Notes: generated from the letters alone by a model not told the origin. A stretch of 64,000 nt of DNA from an uncultured Planctomycetota bacterium (GCA_963737655.1 CAVTTN010000002.1:1344001-1408000), one strand, 5' to 3'; shown: positions 11,447 to 41,751, numbered from the stretch's first letter. A program made the numbers and translations.

Positions 11447-14400
11447 CTACGGGGTGGCGTCCCAGAGGCGGACCTCGCCATCGGTTCCCCCCGAGGCCAG
11501 GACGTTTCCTCCGGGCCGGAAGCTCAGGCCGAGGACGCGGCCGGCGTGGCCCTTCAGCTCGAGCGTCTCCCGGCCTCGCTCGGGGTCCCAGATCCGGACC
11601 GAGCCATCGGCGCCGGCGGAGGCGATCCTCGATCCGTCGGGCGTCCAGGCGAGGGCGAAGATCCAGCCGGTCCTGGGGCTGAACGAGCGGAGTTCCCGGC
11701 CGGTTTCCCTCGACCAGACGCGGATCGTGCCGTCCTGGCCGGCGGAGGCGACGCGCTTCGCCTCGGGGTCGAAGGCGACGGCCGAGACCGCTCCCTGGTG
11801 ACCCTTCAGGACCCTCGACGCGTGCCCCGAATCGAGCCGCCAGAGCCGGACCGTCCCATCGGCGCCGGCCGAGGCGACGAGCTGGCCGTCGCGGGTCACG
11901 GCGAGGTCGTGGATCGGGCCGACGTGCCCCCGCAAGGCGCTCATCTCGAGGCCCGAGCCCAGGTCCCAGACGCGGACGGCTCGCTCGGCCGACGACGGCG
12001 GGACCCCCTTGCCCTGGAGGCCCTGGACGATTTCCCGAGGCTCGCCCCCTCCGGTGATCAGCCGGAGGCCGTCGGGGGCGAAGATCGCGCGGCCGAGCGG
12101 CTCGTCGGGCGTCTTGAAGGTCCCGACGATCTTCCTGGAGGGCCATTCGCGGACAGCCACTGATCCATCAAGGCTCGCCGATACCATCAACCGGCCCGAG
12201 GGGTCGATCGCCGGGGGGAACGGGGCGGGGAGGTCGGTGATTTCCTGCGAAACGCCGTCGGGGAAGGGCCGGATTGCGATCCCTCGGTCGGTCGCGATGG
12301 CCACGGACCGGCCGTCGGGGAAGAAGGCGAGGCCGACGATCGGGCAAGCCGGGAGGTCGGCCCTCCAGATCCGCGAGCCGGGGCCGTCGTCGAGGTCCCA
12401 GAGCTTGACCGTCGCGTCCTGGCCGGCCGAGGCGAGGAGGCGGCCATCGGGGCTGAACGCCACGCTGAAGACCGGCGCCGAATGCCCCGCGAACGAGGCG
12501 AGCTCCCGGCCGGTCCTGGCGTCCCAGACCTTCACCGAGCGATCGAGGGCGCCGGAGGCGATCCTCCGGCCGTCGGGGCTGAAGGCGAGGCCGTCGATCC
12601 GGGCGGAAGCGGCCCGGAAGCTCAGGATTTCCGCGCCGGACCGGGCGTCCCAGACGCGAATCGTCCGATCGGCGCCGCCCGAGGCGAGCGTCCGGCCGTC
12701 GGGCGAGAAGGCGACGCAGCGGGCGGCCTCGGCGTGGGCCGGCAGGCGTCTCCGCTCCCGGCCGGTTCTCGCGTCCCAGAGGATCACCCGGCCATCGGCG
12801 CCGGCGGAGGCGATCTCCTGGCCGTCGGGCCGGAAGGCCACGCCGAAGACCGGCCCGGAGTGGCCCGGGAGCGTCAAGATTTGGTCGCCCGAGCTCGTGT
12901 CCCAGACGCGGACCAACCCGTCGGCGCCCCCGGAGGCGATCGTCGAAGAGGACGCGCCGAAGGCGACGGCCGACGCCCATTCGCCGTGGCCGGGGAGGGT
13001 GGCCCGCAAGGTCCCGGCGGGGAGGTCCCAGATCCGAACCGCCCCGTCCGCCCCGGCGGTGGCCAGGAGCGTCCCCCCTCGGCTGAACGCCACGCCGAAG
13101 GCGGTGCCGTCGTGGCCCCGGAGGTCGCAGGCCCGGCGGTTGGTCTTCGCGTCCCAGATCCCCAGCCCTCCGCCGTCGTCGGGGCAGGTGAAGCGGAGGG
13201 TGTCGGGGACGAACGCGACCCCGCAATTCACGGCGTTGTGGCCGCGGAGCGTCAGCTTCTCGGCGTGGGCCTGGCGCTTCAGATAAGACCATTCCCACTC
13301 GCGAAGATCGGGGGGACACGCCTCCAGGAGGCGGTCGAGCCCGGGGACGTCGTTCGAGGCCAGCGCCCGTTCGGCGGCGGCGATCCGGTCGAAGTAGCCG
13401 TCGATCTCGGCCTGCTTGCGGGCGATCGCCTGGCGGCCGAGCTCGCCTTCGGCATTTTGGCGGCCCCGGGCCTCGATCTTGAGGGCGGCGGCGGTCTTCT
13501 CGGCCTTCTGACGGAGGACGATAGCCACGTCGATCGTCGCGGCCAGGAGGACGCAAACGCCCAGCAAGGCGGCGGCCGTCGGGCGCCTGCGGGCCCACTT
13601 GGCGACCCTCTCGGCCGACGAGGCGCGGCGGGCCTCGATCGGCTTGCCCGAGAGCCAGCGGTCGAGGTCGTCGGCCATCGCCTCGGCCGTCGCGTACCGC
13701 CGTTTCGGGTCTTTTTCGAGGCATTTCAGCGCGATCGTGGCGAGGTCTCGGGGCACCCTGGGATGGATCCGCCCGGGGGGCTCCGGCTCCTGCTCGCGGA
13801 CCTTCCGCAGGACCTCGACCACCGATTCGCCCCGGAACGGCGCGAGGCCGGTCAGGAGTTCGTAGAGGATCGCGCCCAGGCCGTGGATGTCGGCGGCGAT
13901 CGTGACGGACTCCCGGCGGCCCTCGGCCTGCTCGGGGGCCATGTAGGCGGGCGTGCCGACGATCGAGCCCGACTTCGTCGAGCGCCGCGTCCCCCTCGAC
14001 TTTCCTCGCCAGCCCGAAATCGGCGACGTGGGGGCGGCCCTGGCGATCGAGGAGGACGTTCGCGGGCTTCAAGTCGCGGTGGAGGATGCCGCGTTGATGG
14101 GCGTAGTGGACGGCCCGACTCACGGCGGAGACGATCTCGGCGGAGCTTCGCGGGTCGGCCTTCAGCCGGGGAACGTGGCGGGCGAGGCTGCCGCCATCGA
14201 CGATCTTCATGCTGTAATATGGGCGGCCGTCGTGCTCGCCGACCTCGAAGATCGGGACGATCCCGGGATGGTCGAGGTGGGCGGCGGCCTCGGCCTCGCG
14301 GCGGAACCGGCGGAGGTCCTCCTCCGTGGCGAGCCGGCCGTCGGCGATCATCTTCAAAGCGAGGACGCGGTCGAGGCTCACCTGCCGGGCCGCGAAGACG

Positions 14401-14720
14401 ACGCCCATCCCGCCCCGGCCGAGCTCGCCCATCAGCTCATAATCGCCGAAATACGCGACACGGCCCCCCTCGGCCGGGGCGATCGGCGAGGGGAACCGCA
14501 CCACGTCGGGCCATTCGGATGTCTTCAAAGGGTCGGCCAGGCGATCGACGGCGTCGAGGTCGGCGAAGAAGGCCGAGAGCTCGGCCGAGTACTCCGGATG
14601 GAGGTCGATCCAGCCTCGGCGATCGGGAGGGCCTCCGCATTCGGCCGCTTCGAGGTAGGAGGCGAGGACGGCCTCGAACCGGGGGTCGGCCTCGGAGTCG
14701 TCGAGACGGGCGCTGGCCAT
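11447..14720 (-). CDS. Ser/Thr protein kinase with transmembrane helix and WD40 repeats; +1 frameshift at about 13980
   Basis: Kinase motifs ELGRGGMGVVF, ALKMI, HRDLKPAN, DFGLA in one frame; SGSIVGTPAYMAPEQ and more than 10 GH...WD repeats in the next frame. Confidence 0.9.
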
Positions 14721-14725
14721 CGGTC

Positions 14726-15265
14726 CTAGCTCTCCTCTCCGGCGGCGAGCCTGGCGCGGAGGGCCTTCAGCCCCCGGTGCAGCAGGCCGGCCACGGCCGG
14801 CTTGGTGGTGCCGAGCGCCTCGGCGATCTCGGCCAGGGGGCAGCCCTGGAGGTGGTGCATCTCGACGGCCCGTCTCTGGCCTTCGGGCAGGGCGGCGAGG
14901 GCGTCGGCCATCCTCAACAGTTCCTCGGCGCGGATCGCCCGGCCGCTGGGCGAGGTCTGGTCGGCCGGCGGGCCGGCGTCGGCCGGGTCGATCGGGACTT
15001 CGCGCTCGTGGGACCGCTTCCGGGCCCCCAGCCGGCGGACCTCGTCGGCCAGGTTGTGGCGGAAGATCGCCCGGAGCCACGCCGCGGTCTGCGCATCATT
15101 GCGAGGCCGAGGCGCGGCCCGGTGAGCATCCAGGAGCGTCTGCTGGACCACCCCCGAGAGGTCGATGGACGATCGGAGCCGACGCGACACCTCGACCCGG
15201 GCCAGGAGGCCCAGGTACTCCCGGAACCGGCTCGGAGTGTCGAGATGCCCGTCGGCCGTGCTCAT
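14726..15265 (-). CDS. Planctomycete-type ECF sigma-70 factor
   Basis: FREYLGLLAR...DLSGVVQQTLLDAH, WLRAIF, TSPSG, region 4 LPEGQRRAVEMHHLQG...EIAEALGTTKPAVAGLLHRGL; directly upstream of the kinase. Confidence 0.92.
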   Translation of the reverse strand: MSTADGHLDTPSRFREYLGLLARVEVSRRLRSSIDLSGVVQQTLLDAHRAAPRPRNDAQTAAWLRAIFRHNLADEVRRLGARKRSHEREVPIDPADAGPPADQTSPSGRAIRAEELLRMADALAALPEGQRRAVEMHHLQGCPLAEIAEALGTTKPAVAGLLHRGLKALRARLAAGEES

Positions 15266-15296
15266 CGTCGTCCCGTCGGGCGGGCGAGGCCCACCT

Positions 15297-15356
15297 GTAG
15301 GGTGCATGAAATGCACCAACCCGCGGCGGCCGAAGGCCGCCCACCGACCAGTCTAC
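15297..15356. repeat. GTAG-type REP copy
   Basis: GTAGGGTGCATGAAATGCACC...GCGGCGGCCGAAGGCCGCC...CTAC; same family as 3336-3481. Confidence 0.85.
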
Positions 15357-17107
15357 CTCGCCGCCTTCAAGAACTTCAGCCGGAGCTTCGCCTCGTCTTT
15401 GCCCGAGGCCAGCCTCGCCTCCTCGGCGGCGATGGCGGAGTCGCGGCCCCCGGCCTTTTCGGTGGCCTGGGCGAACTTCTCGCCGGCCCACCAGTCCGTC
15501 ATGCCGGCGAGGTCGACGGGCCCGCCGGCCTTCTGATGGCACTGGCGGCATTCCTGAGACCGCAAGGCCAGGCCGGCGAGATCGACGAGCCGGCCGTACT
15601 GGCGGGCCGCCCCGCGATCGTCCCCCCGGCCTTCGAGCGCCAGGGCCCGGGCCTTCATGTCGATGCGATCGTAGCAATTCTTCCCCTCGGGCTCGGGCCG
15701 CGCCCCCAGGAGCTTCATCGCGGCATTCCCCTCGACCTTCGCCTCGGCGTCCAGGCCGAGCTCGCGGAGGAGCGACGCCAGCCGGGCCCGGATCATCGTC
15801 GGGTCCTCGCTCAGAGCCGTCATCGGCGGCAGGGGCTTGCCCTCGACCGCGTTCACGGCCGAGCGGAGGTCCGTCGCCAGGCCGGTCAGGAGGAGCCTCC
15901 GGCCCAGGAGCCGCACGTTCTCGTCCTTCGTCGCCTTCACGACCCGCCGGACGATCGGCTCGACGTACCGGCCCTGGCCTCGGAGGTACTCGAAGCCCGC
16001 CAGCCTCCTCGCCTCGTTGGGCGAGCCGAGGTCCAGGACCGCCCGTTCGGCCAATCGTTCGCGGCTCGGCGTGAGCATCTCCAGGCGGCCGACCATCACC
16101 CGGACCGTCTCCTTCGGCGCCGGGTTGATCGTCATCGGGATGAACGCATCGGTCCAGCTCTGCGGGAGGACGAACAGCGTGCGGACGCCCTCGGCGCGGA
16201 AATAGCTGGATTTCCAGGTGTTGACCATCGCGCGGGCCTCCTTCGGGAACAGGCCCGCTTGCACGAGCCGGGCGGCGAGGTCATCGGCCAGGCGGTCGGC
16301 GAAGCGATCGACCGGCAGGGCGTCGGCCATCGAGGGGATCGCCTCGCGGGCGGCCTCGCCGGGCCGGAGCGAAGGGATGTAGGCATAGGCGCCCTTTCCG
16401 CCCTCAACCCGGATCACGAATAGATGAGACACGGACGTCGATCCCTCGTCCATCGCCAGGGTTCCGCCGGACTCGGCCGTCATCTTCAGGGGCAGGGGCG
16501 CGGTGCCGAGCCCCCGGTAGAACAGGAACCGCTCGGTCTCGACGTTGTTCGGCGCGGCCTTCGCCACGTTGTAGGTCTGGACATAGGCCGAATCGACCTG
16601 GCGGGCGAAGTTCCAGAGGGCGTCGGCCGAGGTCGAGGGCGGAGGGGGCAGGGGGCCCGCCTTCGTCGCCGGGACGATCTGCGCATGCCAGATGATCGAC
16701 CCGGACTTCGGCGGCTCGACGGGCGTCGGCACGGGCAGGGCGTCCGTCAGGTGGGGAAAAAGCCCCGCGGCCTGCGGATACCACTGGGTCCACGACCCGC
16801 TCGGGAACTTCACCTCCACGCGGACGGATTGCGGCGTGTTCGTATAGAAATAAATGACCGGCGTCTCGCCCTTGGAGAGGATGTACAGCGGGCGGAGCTG
16901 GTCGCGCCCCCGGGCGTGGACGAAGCCGGGCAGGGCGTGCTCCTCGTGATACATCCCGTCGAGCGAGACGCCGTCCGACCCGCTCATGGCGAGGAACGTG
17001 CCCCACTCGTGGACCACGGCATCGCTCCTCGGCGGGGGATCGGCCAGGGCCGCTCCGGCCGAAAAGGTCCCGGCGAGGAACAGCCCCAGGGCGGTCTTCG
17101 ATCGCAT
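15353..17107 (-). CDS. Secreted uncharacterised protein (VHEWGTF / ETPVIYFY family) with C-terminal helical region and a CxxCH motif
   Basis: Signal peptide; VHEWGTF, ETPVIYFY, ERFLFYRG, GLFPKEARAMVNTW, RVMVGRLE; CRQCH near the C-terminus. Confidence 0.75.
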   Translation of the reverse strand: MRSKTALGLFLAGTFSAGAALADPPPRSDAVVHEWGTFLAMSGSDGVSLDGMYHEEHALPGFVHARGRDQLRPLYILSKGETPVIYFYTNTPQSVRVEVKFPSGSWTQWYPQAAGLFPHLTDALPVPTPVEPPKSGSIIWHAQIVPATKAGPLPPPPSTSADALWNFARQVDSAYVQTYNVAKAAPNNVETERFLFYRGLGTAPLPLKMTAESGGTLAMDEGSTSVSHLFVIRVEGGKGAYAYIPSLRPGEAAREAIPSMADALPVDRFADRLADDLAARLVQAGLFPKEARAMVNTWKSSYFRAEGVRTLFVLPQSWTDAFIPMTINPAPKETVRVMVGRLEMLTPSRERLAERAVLDLGSPNEARRLAGFEYLRGQGRYVEPIVRRVVKATKDENVRLLGRRLLLTGLATDLRSAVNAVEGKPLPPMTALSEDPTMIRARLASLLRELGLDAEAKVEGNAAMKLLGARPEPEGKNCYDRIDMKARALALEGRGDDRGAARQYGRLVDLAGLALRSQECRQCHQKAGGPVDLAGMTDWWAGEKFAQATEKAGGRDSAIAAEEARLASGKDEAKLRLKFLKAAR

Positions 17108-17242
17108 GGCGTCGCCTCCCTTCCTGTCGATTTCCGATCCGGGGCCCGTCGGGATGACGGCCCCCCGAGAGGATGGGCGGAGGAATCGCGAGGAGGGAGC
17201 GCGCGTTTCCGTGGGGTGGACGAAATTGCCCGCGGGATCGGG

Positions 17243-17282
17243 TCGGGCGGCAGGCTTACGTCTTCGTAAGCCTGCCGCCCGA
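17243..17282. terminator. Perfect 18-bp hairpin just downstream of the tricorn gene (terminator or mRNA-stabilising stem)
   Basis: TCGGGCGGCAGGCTTACG-TCTT-CGTAAGCCTGCCGCCCGA; no clear U-tract. Confidence 0.55.
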
Positions 17283-17296
17283 TCAAGACACCCGAG

Positions 17297-20593: not shown

Positions 20594-20776
20594 CGGTCGA
20601 ATGATCTCGGAGGGGTTCGGATCGGACGGCAACGAACCACGAAGCTATTCGCCGACGCCCCGGATGACAAGGCGGTCGCGACCGGAGGGCCGGCCCCCTC
20701 TTGATCGCCGCCGATGTTCACGCGATCATTGCGGGCCGGGGCGATCGGCGGGCCGGATGCTCGGAGGGTTCGGATC

Positions 20777-22045
20777 ATGTCCGAGGTCGTCGGCTCGATC
20801 TTGCAGTTCCTGGAGGCGGCCCAGGGGGCGAGCGCCCTGGTCCACGGCGGGGCGTGGGCGATGCAGGCCCTCCGCAACTTCGGCCGCCAGCAGAAGGCCG
20901 GGCAGATCCGCCGGTTCCTCGAAGAGCTCGGCAACACCAGCGAGCCCCAGGTCCGGTCGCTGGTCGGCGACTGGGCGAAGTCCCGGCCCCGGCCGCCGTC
21001 GATCGACGATCGCGAGGCGCTGATCGCCGTGCTGGTGAACCTCTCGCGGCGGGCCCGGTTCGTGACGACCCACGGGACCGCCCGGAGCAGCATCCTCCGC
21101 AGCCTCCCCCTGATCGAGCAGATGCTCTCGGACATCCAGCCCCGGAGGCGGAGGGGCGAGCCCGTGGCCCCGGAACACCGGAGCTGGAAGCTCGAACGGT
21201 TCCTCGGCATGGGCAATTTCGGCGAGGTCTGGATGGCGAGGAACCCGAACTACCCGCAGCCCCGGGCGTTCAAGTTCTTCACCCGGCCCGGGGCGATCGA
21301 GGCCATCCGCCGGGAGCAGGAGAGCCTGTTCGCCGTCCGCCGCGACCTGGGCGACCACCCGAACCTGATCCGGTTCGAGGACGTCGAGCTCGACGACCGC
21401 GTGATGCCGTACATCGCCCTGGAGTTCGCCGGCGGGGGTTCTCTCGAAGACTGGATCCTGGAGGACGTCGCCGACCGGCCCGCCGTGAACAAGCACGACA
21501 TCGTCCGCCAGGTGGCCGACGGCCTGGCGACGGCCCACCGCCACAAGATCTACCACCGAGACATCAAGCCGGCGAACCTGGTGCTGACCGAGGGCCCCCG
21601 TCCCGTGGCCAAGATCACCGATTTCGGGCTGGGGAAGGTCTCGGCCGAGATCGCCGGGGCGAATGCCTCGACCAGCGCCGCGGTGGTCGTCGGGACGCCG
21701 ATGTACCTGCCCCCCGAGGCCCAGCACCACCGGGACGGCCGCCAACCGGCTCAAGACGACGTGTTCGCCCTCGGCGTGGTCTGGTATCAACTCCTGGTCG
21801 AGAAGCTCGAACGCCCCCCGTACGACTTCGCCGACGAGCTGAGGCACAAGGGGGCCGACTCCCACACGATCGCCCTGATCTCGCGATGCCTCGGGAGGCC
21901 CGAGAACCGCTTCCGGGACGCCGGGGAGCTCGTCGAGAAGCTCGATTTCGTGGGCCTACCCCTCTGGGACGTGCCCCCCGGCGCGCTCGACGTCCAGTAC
22001 CTGTTCCGCGAGTACCACGCGAGCCTGCCGGAAGCATCCCTGTAG
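20777..22045 (+). CDS. Cytoplasmic Ser/Thr protein kinase with uncharacterised helical N-terminal domain
   Basis: LGMGNFGEVW, AFKFF, HRDIKPAN, DFGLG, GTPMYLPPE, DVFALG; no transmembrane helix or sensor repeats. Confidence 0.9.
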   Translation: MSEVVGSILQFLEAAQGASALVHGGAWAMQALRNFGRQQKAGQIRRFLEELGNTSEPQVRSLVGDWAKSRPRPPSIDDREALIAVLVNLSRRARFVTTHGTARSSILRSLPLIEQMLSDIQPRRRRGEPVAPEHRSWKLERFLGMGNFGEVWMARNPNYPQPRAFKFFTRPGAIEAIRREQESLFAVRRDLGDHPNLIRFEDVELDDRVMPYIALEFAGGGSLEDWILEDVADRPAVNKHDIVRQVADGLATAHRHKIYHRDIKPANLVLTEGPRPVAKITDFGLGKVSAEIAGANASTSAAVVVGTPMYLPPEAQHHRDGRQPAQDDVFALGVVWYQLLVEKLERPPYDFADELRHKGADSHTIALISRCLGRPENRFRDAGELVEKLDFVGLPLWDVPPGALDVQYLFREYHASLPEASL

Positions 22046-22117
22046 GCCGCATGCAATGCACCGTCGCGTCGGGCGGGTGAAACCGGCCGCGAGTTTGGTG
22101 CATTGCATGCACCCTAC
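22042..22117. repeat. GTAG-type REP doublet between convergent genes
   Basis: GTAGGCCGCATGCAATGCACC ... GGTGCATTGCATGCACCCTAC. Confidence 0.85.
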
Positions 22118-25100
22118 GGTCCGGAAAGCGCCCTCTCCAGCTCCTCGCGATCGACGAACGGGCTCTGGAGCCGCAGGGCCCCGCCTCCGCATTCCCACAG
22201 GAGGTCGCCTCGGCCGAGGAGGTCGGCGCCGTCGGGCCTTCGGAGGATCAGTTTGGAGTCGGCCTCGGAGGCGACCTTCAGGCAGATCCGGGCCGGGAGG
22301 TTGCTTCGGAGCAGAGGGGTGACCACGCTCGCCTCGGGCCTCTGGGTGGCCAGGACCAGGTGGATTCCTGCGGCGCGGGCCTTCCCTCCGAGCCTCTTCA
22401 AAGGGGTTTCCAGCGCCTTCTTCGTCGCCTTGTCGGTCATGAGGTCGGCGAACTCGTCGAAGACGACGACGATCCTCGGCGGGGCCTTGGGGTCGATCGC
22501 CTGCCACTGGCCGAGGTCTTCGAGCCGCCGGTCCCTCATCTCGGCGAACCGGCGCTCGCCCTCGTTGAAGACGTCCTCGACGATCCCCAGGGCCTCCTCC
22601 GCGCCCAGGGCCACCGGCCGGAGGAGGAACGGGCCGGGCTCCTGGCCGAAGTTGAAAGTGACCTGCTTCGGGTCGATCAGGGCGAACCGGAGGCGATCGG
22701 GGCCGAGCCGGGCGGCCAGGCTGGCGATCATGGCCTTGAGGAACTCGCTCTTGCCGCTGCCGGTGGTGCCGGCGACCAGGGCGTGGCAGAAGTTCGGGTC
22801 GGAGAAGTCCAGCCAGTGCGTCTCCCCGGCCACGTCCTGGCCGACGGGGAAGCTGGGCGTTCCCGGGGGGCCGGCCGGGAGGTCGCGGAGGCGGACCGTC
22901 CGGCGGAAGCTCGCGGGCAATTCGACGTCGATGCTCACCAGGCCACCCTGCGAGCCGATCAGGGGGAGCGTCTCGACGGCCAGGCCAATTTTGAGGTCCT
23001 CGGCCCGCCCCCGGATCTTGTTGATCGTCGTCGAGGGGTAGGGCTCGACCAAGAACCGGGCGAACGTCGGGCCGATCTGCGGGCCTCCCCGGGCCCGGAC
23101 CCGCGCCCCCAGCTCGCCGAGCCTCCGCGAGATGAACATCTGGGCGTCGTCGGACCAGAGCAACCGGGGCTCGCCATCTTCGTCCAGCTTGGACGGAGGG
23201 GGAGGAGGCGGGGGCGGCGGAACCGTCTCGACCGGCGGGGGCATCGTCGTCACGACCGGCGGGGGCGGCTTCACCACGACCGGCTCGGCGGGGCGTTCCG
23301 GGGGCGCCACCCATCCGGCGAAGATCTGGTCGAACAGGCCGAGGTTCGCCAGGACTCCGAGCTTCGCCGCCAGGTCGCGGAACTCCCCGGCCGAGACGAT
23401 CCGCCCGCCGACCTGGAGGTTCTGCGCCCTGGCCTTCTCCAGAAGCGTCAGATACGTTTCCAGGCGGGCGAAATCGTCGCGAGAGCCGACCAGAGAGACA
23501 ATTCGAAGGTGCTGCTTCTGGACCCCCTCCTCGATCTCCGTCCTCGCCGCGGGGCCGGCCGGGACCTCGGCCCTCGCCGTGACGAAGACGGCCCCGACGG
23601 CGTCCCCCTTCTCGACCGTCTTGAGGGCCGCCTTCAGGTAAGCCGTAAACCGCCGGGCGTCATGGTTGACCTCGAAGGCCACCACCAGAGACTTCGCGCC
23701 CTCTCGCCCGTCCAGGACGGCCTCCAGGGTGTAGCGATAAGGGTCCGGGCTGCCGGCGACCTGCGGGACCGGCCCGTCTCGGACGTCCTTGATGGCCAAT
23801 CCGGCGCCGGTCGGGGGGCGGAGGGCTTCGAGGAACGCCTTGTGGAGCCGTTGGTCCTGGACGTTCTCCGGCCCCCGAGTCTTGTCCCTGGTCGCGTCCT
23901 GGAGCTCCTTCTCCCACTCGTCGCGGATCGCCGCGAGCGGATCGACGGGCGGATCGACCGGGCCGGCCGGCATCAGGTCAATCGCCCGGCCGAGGTCCCC
24001 CTCGTCGGCCCAGTCCCGGTACGCTTCCTCGCAGGTCTTGAGAAGTCCCCGAGGTCGCTGAGGGGCCGAGGCGATCAGGCGGCGGAGCGAGGGCTCGTCG
24101 ATCGGCCACCATCCGGGCCGGGCCGCCGGGCCGTCGGGCCAGTGGAGCAACCTTCGATGGACGAGGGCCAGCGCCTCGTCTTCGTCCAGGTCGTTCAGGC
24201 TGGAAGGGCTCGTCCGCTCGTGGAAGGAGGCCAGGAAACGGTCGGCCAGCAACTTCCATTCGACCTCCAGGCAGGCCACCAGGATCAGCAAGTTCGGGAC
24301 GACCGACCGGAGCGTCATCATGTCGGTGCTGAACTGGAGGGGCGCGTTCTCGCGGTCGGCGAGGAGGACGTCGAGCTGGTCGATGCAGAGGATCACGGGC
24401 AGGTGACCGGCCATCAGCGAGGCCACGGCCTCGACGACTCGCACCGGGTCGGGCGGCTCGTCGGGCAGGCCGAGCCGGGCGGAGACGTCGTCGGGCAGGA
24501 TCTCGCCCCGGAGCCATCGGCGGGCGGCGTCCTTCTCGGGCGACCAGCCCAGGGCCAGGGCCCGGACGATGTTGCCGTCGAGATCGGGATGGGCCTTCGC
24601 CAGCGATTCGGCGAACGTGCGGAACGGCTCGACGGCCTTCACGGCGTCGACGATCGGCCAGACGGCGGCGTCCTCGGCCCGGAGCCGCTCGTGAAGGTCC
24701 TCATGCCGGGCCTCGATCGGCCGGGGGAGGAACGCCAGGTATTTCAGGAACGACGGCCGGGCGAGCCGGGCCAGGGCGCGGGCCAGGGGGGAGCGCGTCC
24801 TGCCGTCGGACTCGTCGAAGACGCTCATGACGACATGATGGCGGATGTGGGCCAGGGGCCGCCGGACGTCCTGGATCGGCGGGACGAACACGAACAGGAC
24901 GGCGCCGCCGATCTCGTGGGCGATCCGGCCGAAGAGGTGCGTCTTGCCGTAGCCGGGAGGCCCGAGCAAGACCTGGATCTTGCGGTTCGGGTCGATCCCT
25001 CGGCGGCCGTCCATCGCCGAGATCGCGGCCTTGAGCCTCTCGGTCACGTCCCGTCCGATCGAGGGGACGTCCCACTCGGGGACGAAATCGACCGGGCCGT

Positions 25101-25152
25101 TCAGGACGCCCCGGCCGAACGGGTTCGGAGGCGGAGGGCCGTCGCCGGTCAT
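22114..25152 (-). CDS. AAA-type P-loop ATPase fused through a proline linker to an FtsK/SpoIIIE motor domain
   Basis: N-terminal GPPGYGKTHL and LCIDQLD; poly-Pro linker; GPTFARFLVEP (FtsK alpha-like), HALVAGTTGSGKS, LIDPK, VFDEFAD, ARAAGIHLVLATQRP, LLGRGDLL. Confidence 0.9.
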   Translation of the reverse strand: MTGDGPPPPNPFGRGVLNGPVDFVPEWDVPSIGRDVTERLKAAISAMDGRRGIDPNRKIQVLLGPPGYGKTHLFGRIAHEIGGAVLFVFVPPIQDVRRPLAHIRHHVVMSVFDESDGRTRSPLARALARLARPSFLKYLAFLPRPIEARHEDLHERLRAEDAAVWPIVDAVKAVEPFRTFAESLAKAHPDLDGNIVRALALGWSPEKDAARRWLRGEILPDDVSARLGLPDEPPDPVRVVEAVASLMAGHLPVILCIDQLDVLLADRENAPLQFSTDMMTLRSVVPNLLILVACLEVEWKLLADRFLASFHERTSPSSLNDLDEDEALALVHRRLLHWPDGPAARPGWWPIDEPSLRRLIASAPQRPRGLLKTCEEAYRDWADEGDLGRAIDLMPAGPVDPPVDPLAAIRDEWEKELQDATRDKTRGPENVQDQRLHKAFLEALRPPTGAGLAIKDVRDGPVPQVAGSPDPYRYTLEAVLDGREGAKSLVVAFEVNHDARRFTAYLKAALKTVEKGDAVGAVFVTARAEVPAGPAARTEIEEGVQKQHLRIVSLVGSRDDFARLETYLTLLEKARAQNLQVGGRIVSAGEFRDLAAKLGVLANLGLFDQIFAGWVAPPERPAEPVVVKPPPPVVTTMPPPVETVPPPPPPPPPSKLDEDGEPRLLWSDDAQMFISRRLGELGARVRARGGPQIGPTFARFLVEPYPSTTINKIRGRAEDLKIGLAVETLPLIGSQGGLVSIDVELPASFRRTVRLRDLPAGPPGTPSFPVGQDVAGETHWLDFSDPNFCHALVAGTTGSGKSEFLKAMIASLAARLGPDRLRFALIDPKQVTFNFGQEPGPFLLRPVALGAEEALGIVEDVFNEGERRFAEMRDRRLEDLGQWQAIDPKAPPRIVVVFDEFADLMTDKATKKALETPLKRLGGKARAAGIHLVLATQRPEASVVTPLLRSNLPARICLKVASEADSKLILRRPDGADLLGRGDLLWECGGGALRLQSPFVDREELERALSGP

Positions 25153-26261
25153 GAGACGCCCTCCACGTAGAACCAGAGCTCCTGCCGGCCCGGGATCGCG
25201 TCGTCACGGTCCTCGACCGTCACTCCCGAGGTGTCGTTCAGCGGGAGGAGCCGGAGTTTCCGGTCGCGATGGAGGCCCAGAATCCGCTCGTCCAGGGCGT
25301 CATGCCGCGCCGCCGAGGGGCCGAGCGCCCTCGCGATCGACCGGCGGATCTCGGGGATCGGCACCAGGCCCGAATGGCCGAACCGCTCGCGTTTCAGCTC
25401 GGTGAAGGCGGCCATCACGGCGCGGTCGATCGCCTCGGGGCCGAGCGGTTGCGGCGTCGGGGGCGGCGGGATGACCGTTCCGCCGAGGGCGGCCCGCGCC
25501 GCGTCGTCGAATCGCTCCGGAGAGATCCCGGCGCCTCCGTATTTCTTGCGGAGCCCCTCCAGTTCCCCGCGGAGGTGTTCGACCAGGTCCGGCGGCCGGT
25601 CGGTGAACTTTCGCGGCTCCTTGACGGCGAACTTCAGGGCCTCGTGCGCGTGGCCGGCATCCAGGAGGCCTTGCAGGAGGTCGCCGAGCTGGTCCTCCGA
25701 GGCGCCCGGACAGGCTTTCTTCGCGGCCCTGGCGAGCTCGGGGAACGTCTGGGGGCCGCGATCCTTCCCCTTGCCCTTGCTCAGGACCGCGAGCAGGGCC
25801 GATTTCGCCAGGTGGTCGGGGCCCCGGTCCCAGAAGAGCGGCGCACCGCCCTTCTTCGCCGGGGGAAAGCGGTGGACGCCTCCGCGATCGGCGAGCGTTT
25901 CGAGGGCCTTGCGGACCGTCTCGACCGAGAACTTGTTGCCGGTCCGGGTCCGGACCCTCGCCGGGTCGAGCGGCGCGTCGGAACCTCGGAGGGCCGGGAG
26001 CAGGGCGTCGATCGCGGCGGCGTCCTGGCTCGTCAGGGCGAACCTCGGGGCCTTGCCCGAGGCGGGGTCCCAGCGGTGGATGGCCGCTCGCGAGGCCATC
26101 TCCTCCAGGAGCGCGCCGAGGCCGGCCGCCGACGGCTTCTTCTTGCCCGGCAGCTTCGCCCGGACCTGCGCCGTCGTCATCGGCTCGGACGTCTCGCCGA
26201 CGAGGGCGAGGATCGATTCCTCCAGACTCGACTCATCCAGGAGCGATTTCTGAATCGCCAT
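25149..26261 (-). CDS. Hypothetical protein with tandem winged-helix-like repeats
   Basis: Starts MAIQKSLL; three similar units ending LLEEMASRAAIHRW / ALETLADRGGVHRF / LLQGLLDAGHAHEA; C-terminal LVPIPEIRR...LDERILGL...DAIPGRQELWFYV; ATGA overlap with the ATPase gene. Confidence 0.75.
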   Translation of the reverse strand: MAIQKSLLDESSLEESILALVGETSEPMTTAQVRAKLPGKKKPSAAGLGALLEEMASRAAIHRWDPASGKAPRFALTSQDAAAIDALLPALRGSDAPLDPARVRTRTGNKFSVETVRKALETLADRGGVHRFPPAKKGGAPLFWDRGPDHLAKSALLAVLSKGKGKDRGPQTFPELARAAKKACPGASEDQLGDLLQGLLDAGHAHEALKFAVKEPRKFTDRPPDLVEHLRGELEGLRKKYGGAGISPERFDDAARAALGGTVIPPPPTPQPLGPEAIDRAVMAAFTELKRERFGHSGLVPIPEIRRSIARALGPSAARHDALDERILGLHRDRKLRLLPLNDTSGVTVEDRDDAIPGRQELWFYVEGVS

Positions 26262-26406
26262 CGGTCGATCCCCGATCGGTCCGCATCCTCGTGAGCCGGA
26301 CGACGCGAGGACTTTACCTGACGAGCGAGTCGGGAACAAGTGTCTACCGAAAGTTCCCCGGCGAGGGGTCGGTCGCGGACGCTCATGGATCGTCGGGGCC
26401 GTACGA

Positions 26407-27207
26407 TCAATCGAGCGGGTTGGATCTCGGGGCCGCGGGGAACGCCTCGTGGAACTCTCGCCAGCAGGCCCTCCACCAGCCCACGAACGAAAGTCCGCCC
26501 CGGCCGATGGCTCGCCGGTGAGACGCCCCGACGACCAGGACCGTCCCGAAGAACAGGGTCCGTTGCAGGGCCATCGTCGCGAATCGGCCGAGGCGGCCCC
26601 GAGCTTCGCGGAGCCTCCCGAGCCGATCGGCCTGGAATGCGACGTGCCGCGCCTCGTCGCCGAGGATCTGGTCGCAGAGACTCCGCAGGACCGCCGAACG
26701 GGTCGCCTCCCGCAGGGCGGCATAGTAGACCTTGGCGAGGATCTCGGCCGTGATCAGGACGGCGATCGCGGCTTCGAGCCCTCCGGCGAATCGTCGCAGG
26801 CCCCGGAACACGCGATCGCCGGGCGTGGTCGCCACCAGGGGGATGCCGTTGAGACCGAGGAAGCGGCCGAGGTCGCGGGCGTGCCTCCGCTCCTCGGCGA
26901 TGAACAGTCGGATCGCGGCGACGTACTCGCGGTCGCCGGTCCTCTCGGCGTACCGCTGGGCGGATCGGAGCAGGTGCTTGCCCTCCGAGCTCTCGCCGGC
27001 CTGGAACTCCCGGAGCGACCGGGCGATCGCGGCGGTTTCCTCGGGAGTCAAGTCGGCCCCGAGCGACCAGGGGATCTCCCGGAGCGACCGGGCATTGCGT
27101 TCGAAGGACCGTCGCCAATCCAGCGAGGTCGGCCGGGTCGCCGAGGGTTGGTGGGGTCGCGGAAAGGGTGCGAATCGCGGCGCGCGGGGAATCCTCGGCG
27201 TCCTCAT
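26407..27207 (-). CDS. Ferritin-like (di-iron carboxylate) domain protein
   Basis: FQAGESSEG, EERRH, AEILAKVYY, DEARH: paired ExxH motifs. Confidence 0.85.
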   Translation of the reverse strand: MRTPRIPRAPRFAPFPRPHQPSATRPTSLDWRRSFERNARSLREIPWSLGADLTPEETAAIARSLREFQAGESSEGKHLLRSAQRYAERTGDREYVAAIRLFIAEERRHARDLGRFLGLNGIPLVATTPGDRVFRGLRRFAGGLEAAIAVLITAEILAKVYYAALREATRSAVLRSLCDQILGDEARHVAFQADRLGRLREARGRLGRFATMALQRTLFFGTVLVVGASHRRAIGRGGLSFVGWWRACWREFHEAFPAAPRSNPLD

Positions 27208-27264
27208 GAACGTCTCCCGTCGAGAATCGCGATGGGCCTCCCCCGGCGGGGGAGGCCCGACATT

Positions 27265-27312
27265 CTTTGCGATGCAAAGCGAACCAGGCTCGGCCATCTT
27301 TGCGATGCAAAG
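27265..27312. promoter_or_regulatory. Two identical palindromic operator-like sites
   Basis: CTTTGC-GAT-GCAAAG at 27265-27279 and 27298-27312, upstream of the ferritin-like gene. Confidence 0.7.
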
Positions 27313-27406
27313 TCGCCGAGTCAAGGATTTTTCCGGGCTTCCGCGCGGAGGGCGGCCCGGGAGGTCTGGGATCGAGAGGGGATTCCGCCGTGGAGGGCCG
27401 CCGCGA

Positions 27407-31393: not shown

Positions 31394-31825
31394 ATGGCGA
31401 TGGCGATGAGGCAATCGGACGCGGTGGAGGTCAAGCGGGTCGCGGGCAAGGGCCGCGGGGTGTTCGCCCGGAGGGCGATCCCCCGGGGCGAGGTCTTCGA
31501 GACCTGCCCGGTCCTGGTCCTGCCCGAGGGCGCCCTGGGCGACGAAGACTCGATCCTCTGGACCTACGGCTTCGCCTGGGGCCGCGGCCGGGTCGCCCTG
31601 GCCCTGGGCTATGGGTCCCTTTACAACCACTCGTACAGGCCCAACGCCCGGTACGATGACATCGGCCCCCAGGCCAAGGCGTTCTCCGCGATCCGGGACA
31701 TCGAGCCGGGCGAGGAGATCACCGTCAACTACAACGGCGAGCCCCGGCGCAAGGCGAAGGTCTGGTTCGATGTCGTCGAGGCGGGCGCCGAACGTCCGAA
31801 ACGGCTCACCACGGCCTCCGAATAG
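31394..31825 (+). CDS. SET domain protein-lysine methyltransferase
   Basis: GKGRGVFA, YNHSYRPNA, GEEITVNY. Confidence 0.92.
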   Translation: MAMAMRQSDAVEVKRVAGKGRGVFARRAIPRGEVFETCPVLVLPEGALGDEDSILWTYGFAWGRGRVALALGYGSLYNHSYRPNARYDDIGPQAKAFSAIRDIEPGEEITVNYNGEPRRKAKVWFDVVEAGAERPKRLTTASE

Positions 31826-32224: not shown

Positions 32225-33052
32225 TCAGACCCACATCTCCTCCAGGATCGCGTTGATCCCGCTGCGGTCGAACGCCTCCGGGTCGAAGAACCCGCCCGAC
32301 CATTCCATCATGTCCTGGTGCTGAGGGTGATCGGGGTTGGCGATGGCATCGAGGAAGTCGAGATAGCCCCAGGGGCCGCCGACGTCCTCGGGCGGGCAGG
32401 CCCTCTTGCCGGCGAGGCATTCGGGATGCTTCGGCCCCTGGCCGGGCGGGAGGACCTTCTCGACCAGGATCTCGTGCTCCCAGTTGTCGCCGAAGTCGTA
32501 GGTGTAGAAGATCTTCGACCCCTTCCCGGTGACCACGGCGCTCAGGGGGACGAGGCTGGCGTCCTCCATGTCGAGTTCGGCGGCGCCCATCGCGTCGGTG
32601 TAGTCCTGGCCGTCGGCCTCGAACGAATACAGGTGGCCGTCTTCCCACCCCATCGCCTCCTGGAGGATCTGGTGGAGGAGGCTCAGGGAGCAATCGGGGA
32701 CGACCAGTCGCCTCCAGATCGGCGGCCGGATGCCTCGGAGAGTGACCTTGATCTGATACGCCGTTCCCGAGACCCCGGGCGGTCGCTTCGTCTTCGCCTC
32801 GGCCTCCCTCGCGGCGTTCCAGAGCGCCTCGGCGGGAGACCCCGGCTCCGGCAACCACTGCCAGACGGTCCGGATCCCCATCTTCGAGCGCACCTGATAG
32901 AACAGGGCCGAGCTGATCTGCCCCGGATGACCGGCCTTCGCCCACCGGCGGTTGATCGCGTCGAGTTCGAGGCTCGAGTCCTTGCCCAGGGCCTTGCGGA
33001 GGAAGTCGGTCTTCGTCACCTTCTTCTTCGTCTCGGCCTTCTTCTTCGCCAA
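32225..33052 (-). CDS. Plasmid pRiA4b ORF-3 family protein with basic N-terminal domain
   Basis: YQIKVTLRGIRPPIWRR, LHQILQEAMGWEDGHLYSF, YTYDFGDNWEH, ACPPEDVGGPWGY. Confidence 0.92.
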   Translation of the reverse strand: MAKKKAETKKKVTKTDFLRKALGKDSSLELDAINRRWAKAGHPGQISSALFYQVRSKMGIRTVWQWLPEPGSPAEALWNAAREAEAKTKRPPGVSGTAYQIKVTLRGIRPPIWRRLVVPDCSLSLLHQILQEAMGWEDGHLYSFEADGQDYTDAMGAAELDMEDASLVPLSAVVTGKGSKIFYTYDFGDNWEHEILVEKVLPPGQGPKHPECLAGKRACPPEDVGGPWGYLDFLDAIANPDHPQHQDMMEWSGGFFDPEAFDRSGINAILEEMWV

Positions 33053-33222
33053 GATCCACCCCCGCCCCTCTCTCGGGGCCGGACCGAGACCGGATCGTCC
33101 TGGCGAGCCCGGAGGCCGCCGATCCCGCCATATCCTGACGATTCGAAGGCCGATTGGGAAGGGCGTCGCGGGGCCAGCTCAGCGCCGGTGTCTCCTCCAG
33201 GGCCGGGGTTGGGAATTCCTGG

Positions 33223-39073: not shown

Positions 39074-39324
39074 GGGCGGGGGCTCTCGCCGATCCAGAAA
39101 GGGCCGTCACGTTCGAGGTCCGGCGATCCTATCCGATCCGCCGGCCCCCGCTCCAGAGCGGAAACCCCGGGTCTCAGGACCGTTTCCTCGGCCTCGCGAG
39201 CCAATCGAAAAAATCCTCGGAATTTCCTGGCAGAAGCCGGGCCATTTGGGGCATTTATTAAGGGAGGCGGGGCGGTCGGGAGGTCCTCCGATCGTCCGTC
39301 CCGGAGCCGGGAGGGGGGCGAACC

Positions 39325-41751
39325 TTGATTGGACGTGGCCTGCAACTCGTCGCGGCGGCCCTGGCCCTCGGGATCGGCTCGGCGTCGGCCGACGAGCCCA
39401 ACTCCCCCCCGAAGCCCTCGCCCGAGGGGGCGCCGTCGGAGCGATTCGCGAAGGACGTCGTCCCGTTCCTGGCCTCGCACTGCTTCGCCTGCCACGGGAA
39501 CGGCAAGGCTCGCGGCGACGTGACGTTGGACAAATCCCGGGGCGCGAAGGACGTCCTCAAGGACCGCGACCTCTGGGAACGCGTCACGGAGATGGTCCGC
39601 ACCGGCGAGATGCCCCCCAAGAGCAAGGACAAGGACAAGGACCAGGCCAACGTCCGGCCCCGGCCCGACCCCGCCGAGGCCGAGGCCGCGATGAAGGCCC
39701 TCGACGACGTCCTCGCCCAGTACGATTGCTCCGGCCCCCGCGACTTCGGCCGGGTGACGATCCGCCGCCTGAACCGGACCGAGTACAACAACACGATCCG
39801 AGACCTCGTCGGCGTCGATTTCAAGCCCTCGGCCGACTTCCCCAATGACGACGTCGGCTACGGCTTCGACAACATCGGCGACGTGCTCTCCGTCTCGCCG
39901 ATGCTCCTCGAAAAGTACCTCACGGCCGCCGAGGAGGTCTTCGAGCGCGCCATCGTGATCGCCGACCCTCCGAAGCCGAAGGCCGAGCGCCTGGGCAGCC
40001 CCAAGGCGTCGTTCAACGCCGGCCGGGATCGTCGCGGGGGCGGCCAGTTCCTCTTCGGCAAGGGGCAGATCTCGGGGCAGATCTACCTCGACGAGGGGGA
40101 TTACACGATCAAGGCCACCGTCTTCGGCCAGCAACGCGGAGACGAGCCGGTCAAGGGGGCGATCCGAGTCGGCCGAGACGAGGTCTTCCGGTTCGAGACG
40201 AACGCGACCGAGGAGAAGCCCGAGACGATCGAGGCGAAGGTGCGGATCAAGGCCGGGTCGAAGACGATCGGAGTCGCCTTCCTCAACCCGTTCACCGAGC
40301 CGGCGAAGCCCGACGAGAAGGCCGAGAATCCCGAGCCCGCCCCGAAGGACCCGAAGAAGGCCGACCCGTTCCGACCCGTCGATCCCGACACGCATCAGCG
40401 GGTCCTGGTCGTCCGCAACATCGCCCTGGATGGCCCGTACAACCCGCCTCCGCCCGACCTGCCCGAGACCCACCGGCGGATCTTCGCCCACAAGCCCGGC
40501 CTGGAGCCTCGCGAGGCCGCCCGGGAGATCGTCGCGAGGTTCGCCGACCGCGCCTTCCGCCGGCCGAGCCGACCGGAGGAGGTCGATCGCCTCCTGAAGC
40601 TCTACGACCGGGCCGAAAAGGAAGGCGAACGGTTCGAGGACCGCGTCCGCCTGGCCCTCGAAGGGGTCCTCGTCTGGCCCGATTTCCTGTTCCGGGTCGA
40701 GTCGCAGGCGCCCGGCCTGGCGCCGGGAATGAGCGAGCCGATCGGCGAGTACGAGCTGGCCTCCCGGCTCTCGTACTTCCTCTGGAGCAGCATGCCGGAC
40801 GCCGAACTGTTCGACCTCGCCGCCCGGGGGAAGCTCCGGGAGAACATCGACGCCCAGGTCCGCCGGATGCTCGCCGACCCGAAGTCGATCGCCTTCGTCC
40901 AGAACTTCTCCGGCCAGTGGCTGACCACGAGGAAGCTCGCCTACGTGGCGCCCGACCCGGAGACGTTCCCCGGCTTCGACGACGAGCTCCGCTCCGCGAT
41001 GACGAAGGAAACGGAACTCTTCTTCGAGGCGATCCTCCGCGAGAATCGCGGCATCCTCGACCTCCTCGACGCCGATTTCAGCTTCCTCAATGAGCGATTG
41101 GCGAGACATTACGGGATCGTCGGCGTGACCGGGCCCGAGTTCCGCCGGGTGAAGCTTCCGCCGAACCGCGGAGGCGTCTTGACCCAGGCGAGCATCCTCA
41201 CGCTGACCTCGAACCCGACGCGGACCTCCCCCGTGAAGCGAGGCAAGTGGGTGCTCGACCAGATCCTCGGCACGCCTCCGCCGCCCCCTCCGCCGGACGT
41301 CCCCTCGCTGCCCGACGAGAAGCAATTGACCGGCTCGCTCCGCAAGGTCATGGAGCAGCACCGGGCCAACGCCCTGTGCGCCTCGTGCCACCAGAGGATG
41401 GACCCGATCGGCTTCGCGTTCGAGAATTTCGACGCCGTCGGCGCCTGGCGAGACAAGGACGGCGATTCGCCGATCGACGCGTCCGGCGTCTTGCCCGGAG
41501 GCCAGTCGTTCCAGGGCCCGGCCGATCTCAAAACGATCCTCCGGGGGAAGAGAGACCAGTTCAGCCGCTGCCTGGTCGAAAAAGTGCTCACGTACGCCCT
41601 CGGCCGAGGGTTAGAATCGTATGACCGTTGCGCAGTCGATGAAATCCTGGACGCCGTCCGCAAGGACGAGGACCGATTCGCCACCCTGATCGTCGCGGTG
41701 GCCCGGAGCGGACCATTCCTGATGAGAACAGCCGGAGGGGACGAGCCATGA
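39325..41751 (+). CDS. DUF1587/DUF1595/DUF1592/DUF1588/DUF1585 planctomycete cytochrome-c-like protein
   Basis: CFACH, RRLNRTEYNNTIRDL, ASRLSYFLWSSMPD, TSPVKRGKWVL, CASCH. Confidence 0.93.
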   Translation: MIGRGLQLVAAALALGIGSASADEPNSPPKPSPEGAPSERFAKDVVPFLASHCFACHGNGKARGDVTLDKSRGAKDVLKDRDLWERVTEMVRTGEMPPKSKDKDKDQANVRPRPDPAEAEAAMKALDDVLAQYDCSGPRDFGRVTIRRLNRTEYNNTIRDLVGVDFKPSADFPNDDVGYGFDNIGDVLSVSPMLLEKYLTAAEEVFERAIVIADPPKPKAERLGSPKASFNAGRDRRGGGQFLFGKGQISGQIYLDEGDYTIKATVFGQQRGDEPVKGAIRVGRDEVFRFETNATEEKPETIEAKVRIKAGSKTIGVAFLNPFTEPAKPDEKAENPEPAPKDPKKADPFRPVDPDTHQRVLVVRNIALDGPYNPPPPDLPETHRRIFAHKPGLEPREAAREIVARFADRAFRRPSRPEEVDRLLKLYDRAEKEGERFEDRVRLALEGVLVWPDFLFRVESQAPGLAPGMSEPIGEYELASRLSYFLWSSMPDAELFDLAARGKLRENIDAQVRRMLADPKSIAFVQNFSGQWLTTRKLAYVAPDPETFPGFDDELRSAMTKETELFFEAILRENRGILDLLDADFSFLNERLARHYGIVGVTGPEFRRVKLPPNRGGVLTQASILTLTSNPTRTSPVKRGKWVLDQILGTPPPPPPPDVPSLPDEKQLTGSLRKVMEQHRANALCASCHQRMDPIGFAFENFDAVGAWRDKDGDSPIDASGVLPGGQSFQGPADLKTILRGKRDQFSRCLVEKVLTYALGRGLESYDRCAVDEILDAVRKDEDRFATLIVAVARSGPFLMRTAGGDEP

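Follow-up and report, generated by a model that had tools for sequence, protein, structure and literature searches.

What does a protein do that joins two P-loop ATPases in one polypeptide, and with which partners does it work? The question is raised by a 64,000-nt stretch of DNA from an uncultured Planctomycetota bacterium (GCA_963737655.1 CAVTTN010000002.1:1344001-1408000), here called the window, in which an open reading frame (ORF) of 1012 amino acids (aa), gene B (22114-25152, minus strand), follows a 370-aa ORF, gene A (minus strand, ATG at 26261, end at 25149; the gene call in the protein collection, P0070, has the same length). The two overlap by ATGA. The original prediction, made from the sequence alone, gave these positions, lengths and overlap, all of which are confirmed by the ORFs and their translation. 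It described a two-gene module and overlooked gene C, which encodes a Ser/Thr kinase at 20777-22045 on the plus strand, convergent on B. The three genes form an accessory cassette, A-B-C, present in a single copy. Gene B joins an Orc/Cdc6-type AAA+ ATPase to an FtsK motor, and class-level homology of the cassette to the published "HerA/FtsK capture" systems is well supported. The reading we favour, to which we give about even weight, is that A-B-C is a capture-type counter-invader system, nuclease-free and kinase-coupled, with phosphorylation and not DNA cleavage as its output.

Linkage of the three genes

Conservation was followed in 34 related loci besides the window, two from genomes and 32 from metagenomes, with profiles for A, the N-terminal part of B, the FtsK part of B and the kinase. 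The kinase profile was built from three sequences and the A profile from five, which match by construction. Profile hidden Markov models were used for A and C because these sequences diverge too fast for a word index; word-indexed searches with A and with the kinase N-terminus each returned only two relatives besides the query.

In 32 of the 34 loci gene A stands immediately 5' of B, and the other two have at most 55 bp of upstream sequence, so that the conserved pair of winged helix-turn-helix (wHTH) and FtsK proteins that had been predicted is found in 32 of the 32 loci with room for it. The FtsK part was recognized in 22 loci, in the same ORF in 21 of them and broken by a stop and a frame change in L126. 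As for the loci without it, the contig ends first in ten, L139 is fragmentary, and in L128 the gene ends despite a continuing contig. L128, a metagenome contig of 8714 bp, carries A and the Orc and middle parts only, in a 702-aa ORF, with no FtsK part and no kinase, and runs 5.9 kb further into unrelated genes (GHMP kinase, SpoVG, MFS). Four relatives of B (P0059-P0062, 614-780 aa) are also N-terminal only.

Only two of the 22 loci with a complete B lack the kinase, and these have at most 98 bp of sequence beyond B; the other 20 contain it. In 18 loci the kinase follows B in convergent orientation; L102 has it behind B on the same strand, and L122 has it ahead of B, again on the same strand. 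At two loci a GFO_IDH_MocA oxidoreductase gene stands between B and the kinase (L118:9370-10692 and L119:5478-6800), and the kinase is still linked, at 1.9-2.6 kb. The clear orthologues in genomes G239 and G324 show 38-39% identity over the full length of B, with an A homologue before B and, after it, a Ser/Thr kinase strikingly like gene C. Twenty-five copies, the window included, fall into 22 clusters at 90% and 9 clusters at 50% identity of the N-domain. The pairwise identities of A, B and C co-vary (r 0.83-0.89), some of which could be produced by shared host phylogeny.

In its own genome (G000) gene C scores 762 bits against the kinase profile, and the module kinases of other loci score 397-769 bits. 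The same genome is unusually rich in Ser/Thr kinases, with 117 ORFs of at least 150 aa that match the profile at E<=1e-3; the next best after C is C2:6440433-6443765 with 197 bits. In a sample of 301 genomes of the phylum, with the five best candidates of each genome scored, G000 and G239 alone had a member of the subfamily of C at E<=1e-50, and these are also the two with a family-level B. By these scores C represents a distinct kinase subfamily, found only where B is found.

Family-level B is present in one of 300 other sampled genomes of the phylum (G239), in one of 40 relatives (G324) and in none of three genomes of the same genus (completeness 96, 71 and 77%), and it is single-copy in its own genome. 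A word-indexed search returned 56 full-length homologues of B, some of them with the source names Singulisphaera, Gemmataceae and Humisphaera. In three genomes the module is chromosomal, on megabase-scale contigs.

Domains of the three proteins and their surroundings

The features of the locus are given below by their coordinates in the window, with winged helix abbreviated to WH, restriction endonuclease to REase and the predicted local distance difference test to pLDDT.

25149..26261, minus strand: gene A, multi-WH partner, 370 aa; N-terminal WH repeats variable, C-terminal WH (274-370) conserved
23953..25152, minus strand: gene B residues 1-400, Orc/Cdc6-type AAA+ ATPase module; Walker A GPPGYGKT, Walker B D258-Q259, R313 and R368 invariant
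23308..23952, minus strand: gene B residues 401-615, middle alpha/beta domain and C-terminal helical/hairpin element; REase-like secondary-structure order, no catalytic motif
23173..23307, minus strand: gene B residues ~616-660, Pro-rich flexible linker, from the translation; pLDDT ~50
22114..23172, minus strand: gene B residues ~661-1012 and stop, FtsK alpha and beta motor without gamma domain, from Pfam and the alignment with the genome's own FtsK
20777..22045, plus strand: gene C, Hanks-type Ser/Thr kinase, 422 aa, with a module-specific N-terminal helical domain of ~135 aa; Pfam Pkinase 2.5e-30
22046..22113, no strand: convergent intergenic spacer between C and B, 68 bp, from the coordinates
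26262..26406, minus strand: intergenic region 5' of A, 145 bp, presumed promoter region, between A and the rubrerythrin-like gene
26407-27324: rubrerythrin-like gene upstream of A, ending at 26407

The two P-loop engines, the alpha/beta middle of about 200 aa and the poly-Pro linker of the original prediction are all found in B, and every motif that it quoted is present in the translation: GPPGYGKT (65-72), LCIDQLD (255-261), GTTGSGKS (795-802), FDEFAD (898-903) and LATQRP (933-938), with the Pro-rich linker at about 615-655. Pfam recognizes FtsK_SpoIIIE (1.3e-33, residues 768-939), AAA_16 (7e-09, 58-281) and, weakly, FtsK_alpha (1.3e-3, 679-746); the last is also among the precomputed domains of six of the 56 full-length homologues. 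In 41 homologues the FtsK motor keeps Walker A, Walker B and Q937-R938 without change. In the Orc module Walker A, R313 (putative Arg finger) and R368 (sensor-2) are invariant among homologues as well, and Walker B reads D-Q instead of D-E in 40 of 41.

The motor shares its alpha and beta domains with the divisome FtsK. The canonical FtsK of the genome is a separate 757-aa protein that has both the membrane N-terminus and the gamma domain. Its residues 262-642 align with residues 639-1007 of B (BLASTP, 32% identity over 398 aa), beginning within its alpha domain, and B stops where the gamma linker begins. Unlike the divisome protein, B lacks both the membrane domain and the gamma (KOPS/XerD) domain, and it has an Orc-like ATPase in addition: in the model residues 1-400 form a soluble AAA+ fold with no membrane anchor, and Pfam gives no match to Ftsk_gamma. 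The divisome FtsK was rejected on these grounds, as had been anticipated.

The middle domain had been suspected to be a degenerate REase fold. DSSP assigns to the AlphaFold2 model the elements H433-444, E454-459, E475-482, E485-494, H499-514, E520-525, H534-545 and E549-553, that is, the order alpha-beta-beta-beta-alpha-beta-alpha-beta over residues 433-553, and no conserved D...(D/E)xK motif is found in the domain. Both fit the suspicion. Residues 425-615 of 25 members gave only chance-level Pfam rows at E<=5, and likewise with a PDB sequence profile, with no PD-(D/E)XK match from either; the ESM Atlas returned only unnamed clusters (best 0.93; commonest Cyanobacteriota); and the matches listed for the whole-model fold search were AAA+ proteins. 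The modelled secondary-structure order is compatible with a domain that may be restriction-endonuclease-like.

Gene A has no match in Pfam, PADLOC or NCBIfam, and neither DndG, SspB nor FokI is among the matches listed for it. In the model it is an array of winged helices, of which WH1 (3-78) and WH2 (78-147) are confident and a third repeat (about 148-215) is of lower confidence (pLDDT ~60-70). Of the three wHTH-like repeats described earlier two stand firmly and the third more weakly, and what had been taken for a distinct C-terminal unit (274-370) is in the model a winged helix too. In an alignment of 28 sequences the N-terminal part has a median identity of 25%, and its repeats vary in number and length. 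A predicted complex of B 1-620 with A 265-370 scored 0.24 (mark 0.32), which is no evidence either way.

In gene C the Gly-loop, the beta3 Lys, HRD..KPxN, DFG and PPE are conserved in 18 module kinases, and the N-terminal part has a median identity of 27%. The best PADLOC match is mad6 (1.5e-37), with others to PD-T4-6, MkoA and PglW, all at the level of domains. Below threshold (20 bits, E 7e-4, where the cut-off is 25 bits), Pfam matches the N-terminal domain (20777-21199) weakly to HTH_74, a three-helical bundle, and this domain may serve in DNA binding or in docking to A or B. The gene call of the collection is the 422 aa from 20777; with a start at the alternative upstream ATG at 20714 the protein would have 443 aa.

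Consensus scans found no terminator-like site in the 68 bp that separate C from B and no sigma-70-type consensus in the 145 bp 5' of A, the latter result being uninformative for this phylum. The window has a GC content of about 0.70, that of a high-GC planctomycete, and contains PSD/PSCyt "planctomycete" families at 39262-43091; A and B both have a coding signature of 0.9 in GC at third codon positions. Other genes of the window include one with a PRiA4_ORF3 domain (plasmid pRiA4b ORF-3-like, 4e-64) at 32225-33178 on the minus strand, 6 kb from the module, and a SET-domain gene at 31394-31825. At 11447-17296 on the minus strand a WD40-repeat protein (873 aa), an extracytoplasmic function (ECF)-type sigma factor and a 584-aa protein without family match stand in a row upstream of a tricorn-like protease.

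Relation to described systems

The original prediction took the module for an undescribed one and knew of no named system. The class is described in section 22 of PMC10853773 (Nucleic Acids Res 2024), where "HerA/FtsK capture" systems are composed of an Orc/CDC6 AAA+ ATPase, an inactive REase, an active REase, a wHTH and a HerA/FtsK ATPase. One set of these systems has an FtsK-alpha domain taken from cellular FtsK, and a subset has a rapidly evolving gene with 2-4 wHTH. The inactive REase is inserted between the AAA+ core and a C-terminal wHTH. That paper proposes, as a prediction from comparative genomics, that capture systems intercept invader DNA, and we found no experimental test of the class in the literature. 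In its main text "planctomyc" and "protein kinase" have 0 occurrences each, a count that does not extend to the supplementary data, which may list such loci.

The cassette resembles these systems in its Orc/Cdc6 AAA+ module, in a middle domain at the position of the inactive REase, in an FtsK motor with FtsK-alpha, in a fast-evolving gene with 2-4 wHTH and in a patchy, mobile-like distribution. It differs in having no active REase, which the paper lists among the usual core domains, in the fusion of Orc module and FtsK motor in one polypeptide through a Pro-rich linker, and in a dedicated Ser/Thr kinase as the obligate third gene. Because an active REase is missing while the Orc/CDC6 AAA+ ATPase, the FtsK with FtsK-alpha and the fast-evolving wHTH partner are present, we file A-B-C as a variant of the capture class. 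A full-text search found no literature on a kinase-linked Orc/FtsK module.

A profile search for relatives of the Orc-like module among 1.84 billion representatives gave 2645 matches at E<=1e-3; at 1e-10 there are 1465, and at 1e-30 there are 192. Fused proteins of about 1000 aa rank highest, ahead of many proteins of 600-750 aa. The survey for split and fused forms that had been advised shows that both exist among the relatives. In L109, L143 and L147 stand-alone AAA_16 proteins of 670-700 aa are followed by a PDDEXK_1/Cas4-like nuclease fused to FtsK-alpha/FtsK. These relatives share the Orc-like N-module with B, at 93-128 bits against the family profile, and also the FtsK motor, at 247-304 bits; they differ from B in being two genes, in the nuclease N-terminal to FtsK and in having no module kinase in their loci; no kinase was found in eight longer loci of distant relatives. 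Where the relatives carry PDDEXK_1, B has the Pro-rich linker, and no nuclease family was matched in A, B or C.

Other combinations occur around the same Orc-like module. In three genomes of the window's taxonomic family (L014, L016 and L019, from G321, G307 and G322) proteins of about 1080-1130 aa have an Orc-like AAA_16 (72-122 bits) fused to a HerA-type (DUF87/HerA_C) ATPase and not to FtsK; no nuclease family was matched in the parts covered. L104 and L105 (G018, G053) and L010 (G164) have ORFs of about 1020-1056 aa with an Orc-like module (162-187 bits) and long C- or N-terminal regions without Pfam match, possibly further effector swaps in the same superfamily. G000 also encodes an EccC-like protein at C2:3071087-3074347 (L003), with a long coiled coil and FtsK-type P-loop domains (89 bits to FtsK_SpoIIIE).

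PADLOC-DB v2.0.0, a check recommended earlier, gave no full-system match and only domain-level ones, to the SspH C-terminus, mad8 and mad6. For A and for the N-terminus of B nothing was found beyond a P-loop match to mad8 (E 5e-4). MADS (mad1-mad8; bioRxiv 10.1101/2023.03.30.534895, PMC13662399) also combines a kinase with ATPase modules; in the accessible part of that source mad6-8 are mandatory in the authors' MacSyFinder model, together with methylation genes. The kinase C matches mad6 (value above) and the motor of B matches mad8 (8.9e-31). The module has no methyltransferase, specificity subunit, MAD3/MAD4 or mad7 equivalent, and MADS was rejected, since the mad6 and mad8 matches are domain-level only and no methyltransferase is among the neighbours. 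The accessible MADS text held no report of the system in planctomycetes.

The motor also matches the C-terminus of SspH (PADLOC, 3e-52), over the last ~220-320 model positions, and a triple-wHTH companion (DndG) is a theme of SspFGH/DndFGH too. The module lacks the other SspH/DndH domains (REase, helicase-like, DAM-like), DndF/SspF and a phosphorothioate-modification gene. SspH/DndH was rejected, the match covering only model positions 1539-1760 of 1766 and 1234-1554 of 1561. BREX type 2/Pgl, as far as the available part of PMC12839542 describes it, has the Orc-like ATPase BrxC/PglY and the kinase PglW, which is proposed there as a backup effector. In comparison with that description A-B-C has no PglZ and no PglX methyltransferase, its kinase is small and stand-alone without NERD or pseudokinase domains, and an FtsK motor is present.

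Three further families were rejected. EccC/EssC of type VII secretion scored 51-88 bits against NCBIfam cut-offs of 347-778. For NACHT-STAND the scores were 22.6 against 26.7 for NACHT, 21.5 against 34 for nSTAND_NTPase5 and 18.6 against 27.1 for nSTAND1, on the FtsK P-loop. TraB, with a weak NCBIfam match (1.9e-10) far below the cut-off, was rejected as a family, the motor being closest to the cellular FtsK and SspH type.

Proposed role of the cassette

If A-B-C is a counter-invader system, gene A would be the targeting subunit. Its fold and pattern of conservation are consistent with a variable WH array that recognizes a DNA feature or an invader component, and the conserved C-terminal WH may dock on B. 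From its motifs the Orc/Cdc6-like AAA+ module of B would be an ATP-dependent switch or loader, and the D-Q Walker B suggests slow turnover, with ATP staying bound for long. The FtsK motor, tethered by the Pro-rich linker and recruited through A and the Orc module, is expected from its family to translocate double-stranded DNA. In the nuclease-bearing relatives the PD-(D/E)XK nuclease fused to the FtsK protein would be the effector. In A-B-C this domain is gone and a kinase that is catalytically intact by its motifs is always linked, which points to phosphorylation as the output. The substrates of gene C could be proteins of the host or of the invader, as part of a dormancy or abortive response; alternatively, C could switch A and B on and off. 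The most economical reading of the evolution is that the Orc-like and FtsK genes fused, that the nuclease was lost and left the Pro-rich linker, and that the kinase was recruited and has been co-inherited since. We also propose, tentatively and as less likely than not, that the cassette is an apparatus of immunity or surveillance with a new output, in which an Orc switch and an FtsK pump, aimed by a hypervariable WH subunit, would signal DNA engagement not by cutting but through the kinase, with host or invader proteins as its substrates.

Several observations weigh against a counter-invader role. The case for defence draws on the comparative genomics of one paper and on the context data given here, the active REase, one of the features that define the published class, is absent, and Pfam and PDB sequence profiles gave no REase match for the middle domain. 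The kinase may be effector, sensor or regulator. The defence-island enrichment that had been foreseen was found neither in the window, where the neighbours are a tricorn-like protease, a rubrerythrin-like protein and an esterase/lectin, nor in the flanks of the related loci, where 45 true flanking ORFs are almost all metabolic and differ between lineages. The exceptions are L114, with a DDE transposase, a ParA-like (AAA_31) gene and an HU-like gene, and L115, with one PT-HINT gene. The window shows no compositional anomaly (GC 0.70-0.71), there is no tRNA or integrase near the module, and Rfam and tRNA scans of the window were empty. In addition, an amidase neighbour is common to five related loci, which indicates vertical inheritance within one clade. 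No empty site is definable in the three genomes of the same genus, which have a DNA identity of 65-78% and broken synteny; in G302 only the esterase and AlgH-like neighbours were recovered, 18 kb apart, with no insertion boundary. The module is accessory and patchy, and lies outside any recognizable defence island or mobile element.

The main alternative, a real but minor possibility, is a module domesticated for a function other than defence. A-B-C would then act on the host chromosome under kinase control, and A would be a site-specific DNA binder that the ATPase loads or remodels, for example a transcription or nucleoid-organisation factor. The lack of a nuclease and of a defence-island context would agree with this, as would a single-copy, compositionally native module with amidase synteny in five loci, in a phylum whose members carry very many signalling Ser/Thr kinases (the own genome with its 117 kinase-like ORFs among them). 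A possible analogy is found in cyanobacteria, where, according to the accessible part of PMC2799420, the wHTH-like RcaD and the downstream ATPase RcaG are reported to bind a phycocyanin promoter and phosphorylation is suspected to matter. However, the patchiness described above (1/300, 1/40, 0/3) is hard to square with housekeeping. The fastest-evolving parts are the presumed recognition surfaces (N-terminal parts of A, 25%, and of the kinase, 27%), a pattern usually read as conflict-driven. Moreover the FtsK motor is fully intact by its motifs, and a simple transcription factor would not need one.

It is improbable that the cassette is DNA-transfer or partition machinery of a mobile element, in the form of a kinase-regulated FtsK pump, TraB-like or of plasmid type, that brings its own protein for DNA recognition. 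FtsK-family pumps do move DNA in conjugation, and the weak TraB match, the patchy distribution and the genes beside L114 (DDE transposase, ParA-like AAA_31, HU-like) are what such machinery might leave. Nevertheless the motor is closest to the cellular FtsK/SspH type and not to TraB, the module is chromosomal in three genomes, and no integrase, relaxase, replication gene, tRNA target or repeat boundary was found in the window or in the other flanks scanned. Least probable is an undescribed two-gene DNA-scanning system with the kinase as a mere neighbour. In its favour are the translational coupling of A and B, the position of the kinase on the opposite strand in most loci and the lack of a PADLOC model for A or the B N-terminus. 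Against it, the kinase stays in 20 of 20 complete loci with room through three gene orders and a 1.9-2.6-kb insertion (L118/L119), its subfamily occurs only where B occurs, and the two-gene core was described in 2024.

The capture class, to which we assign A-B-C as a kinase-coupled variant, is widespread, as the 2645 profile matches at E<=1e-3 indicate, and this family is a natural dissection of it, in which the recognition subunit, the switch and the pump are kept and a kinase stands in for the nuclease. If the module defends, it would couple DNA capture to phosphorylation signalling, and its phospho-substrates would offer a tractable readout. If it does not, this phylum, whose cell biology is unusual, would offer a clear case of an immune DNA motor turned to a host function. 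Should the new output proposed above be real, a nuclease effector would have given way to a signalling one within a single lineage of defence systems.

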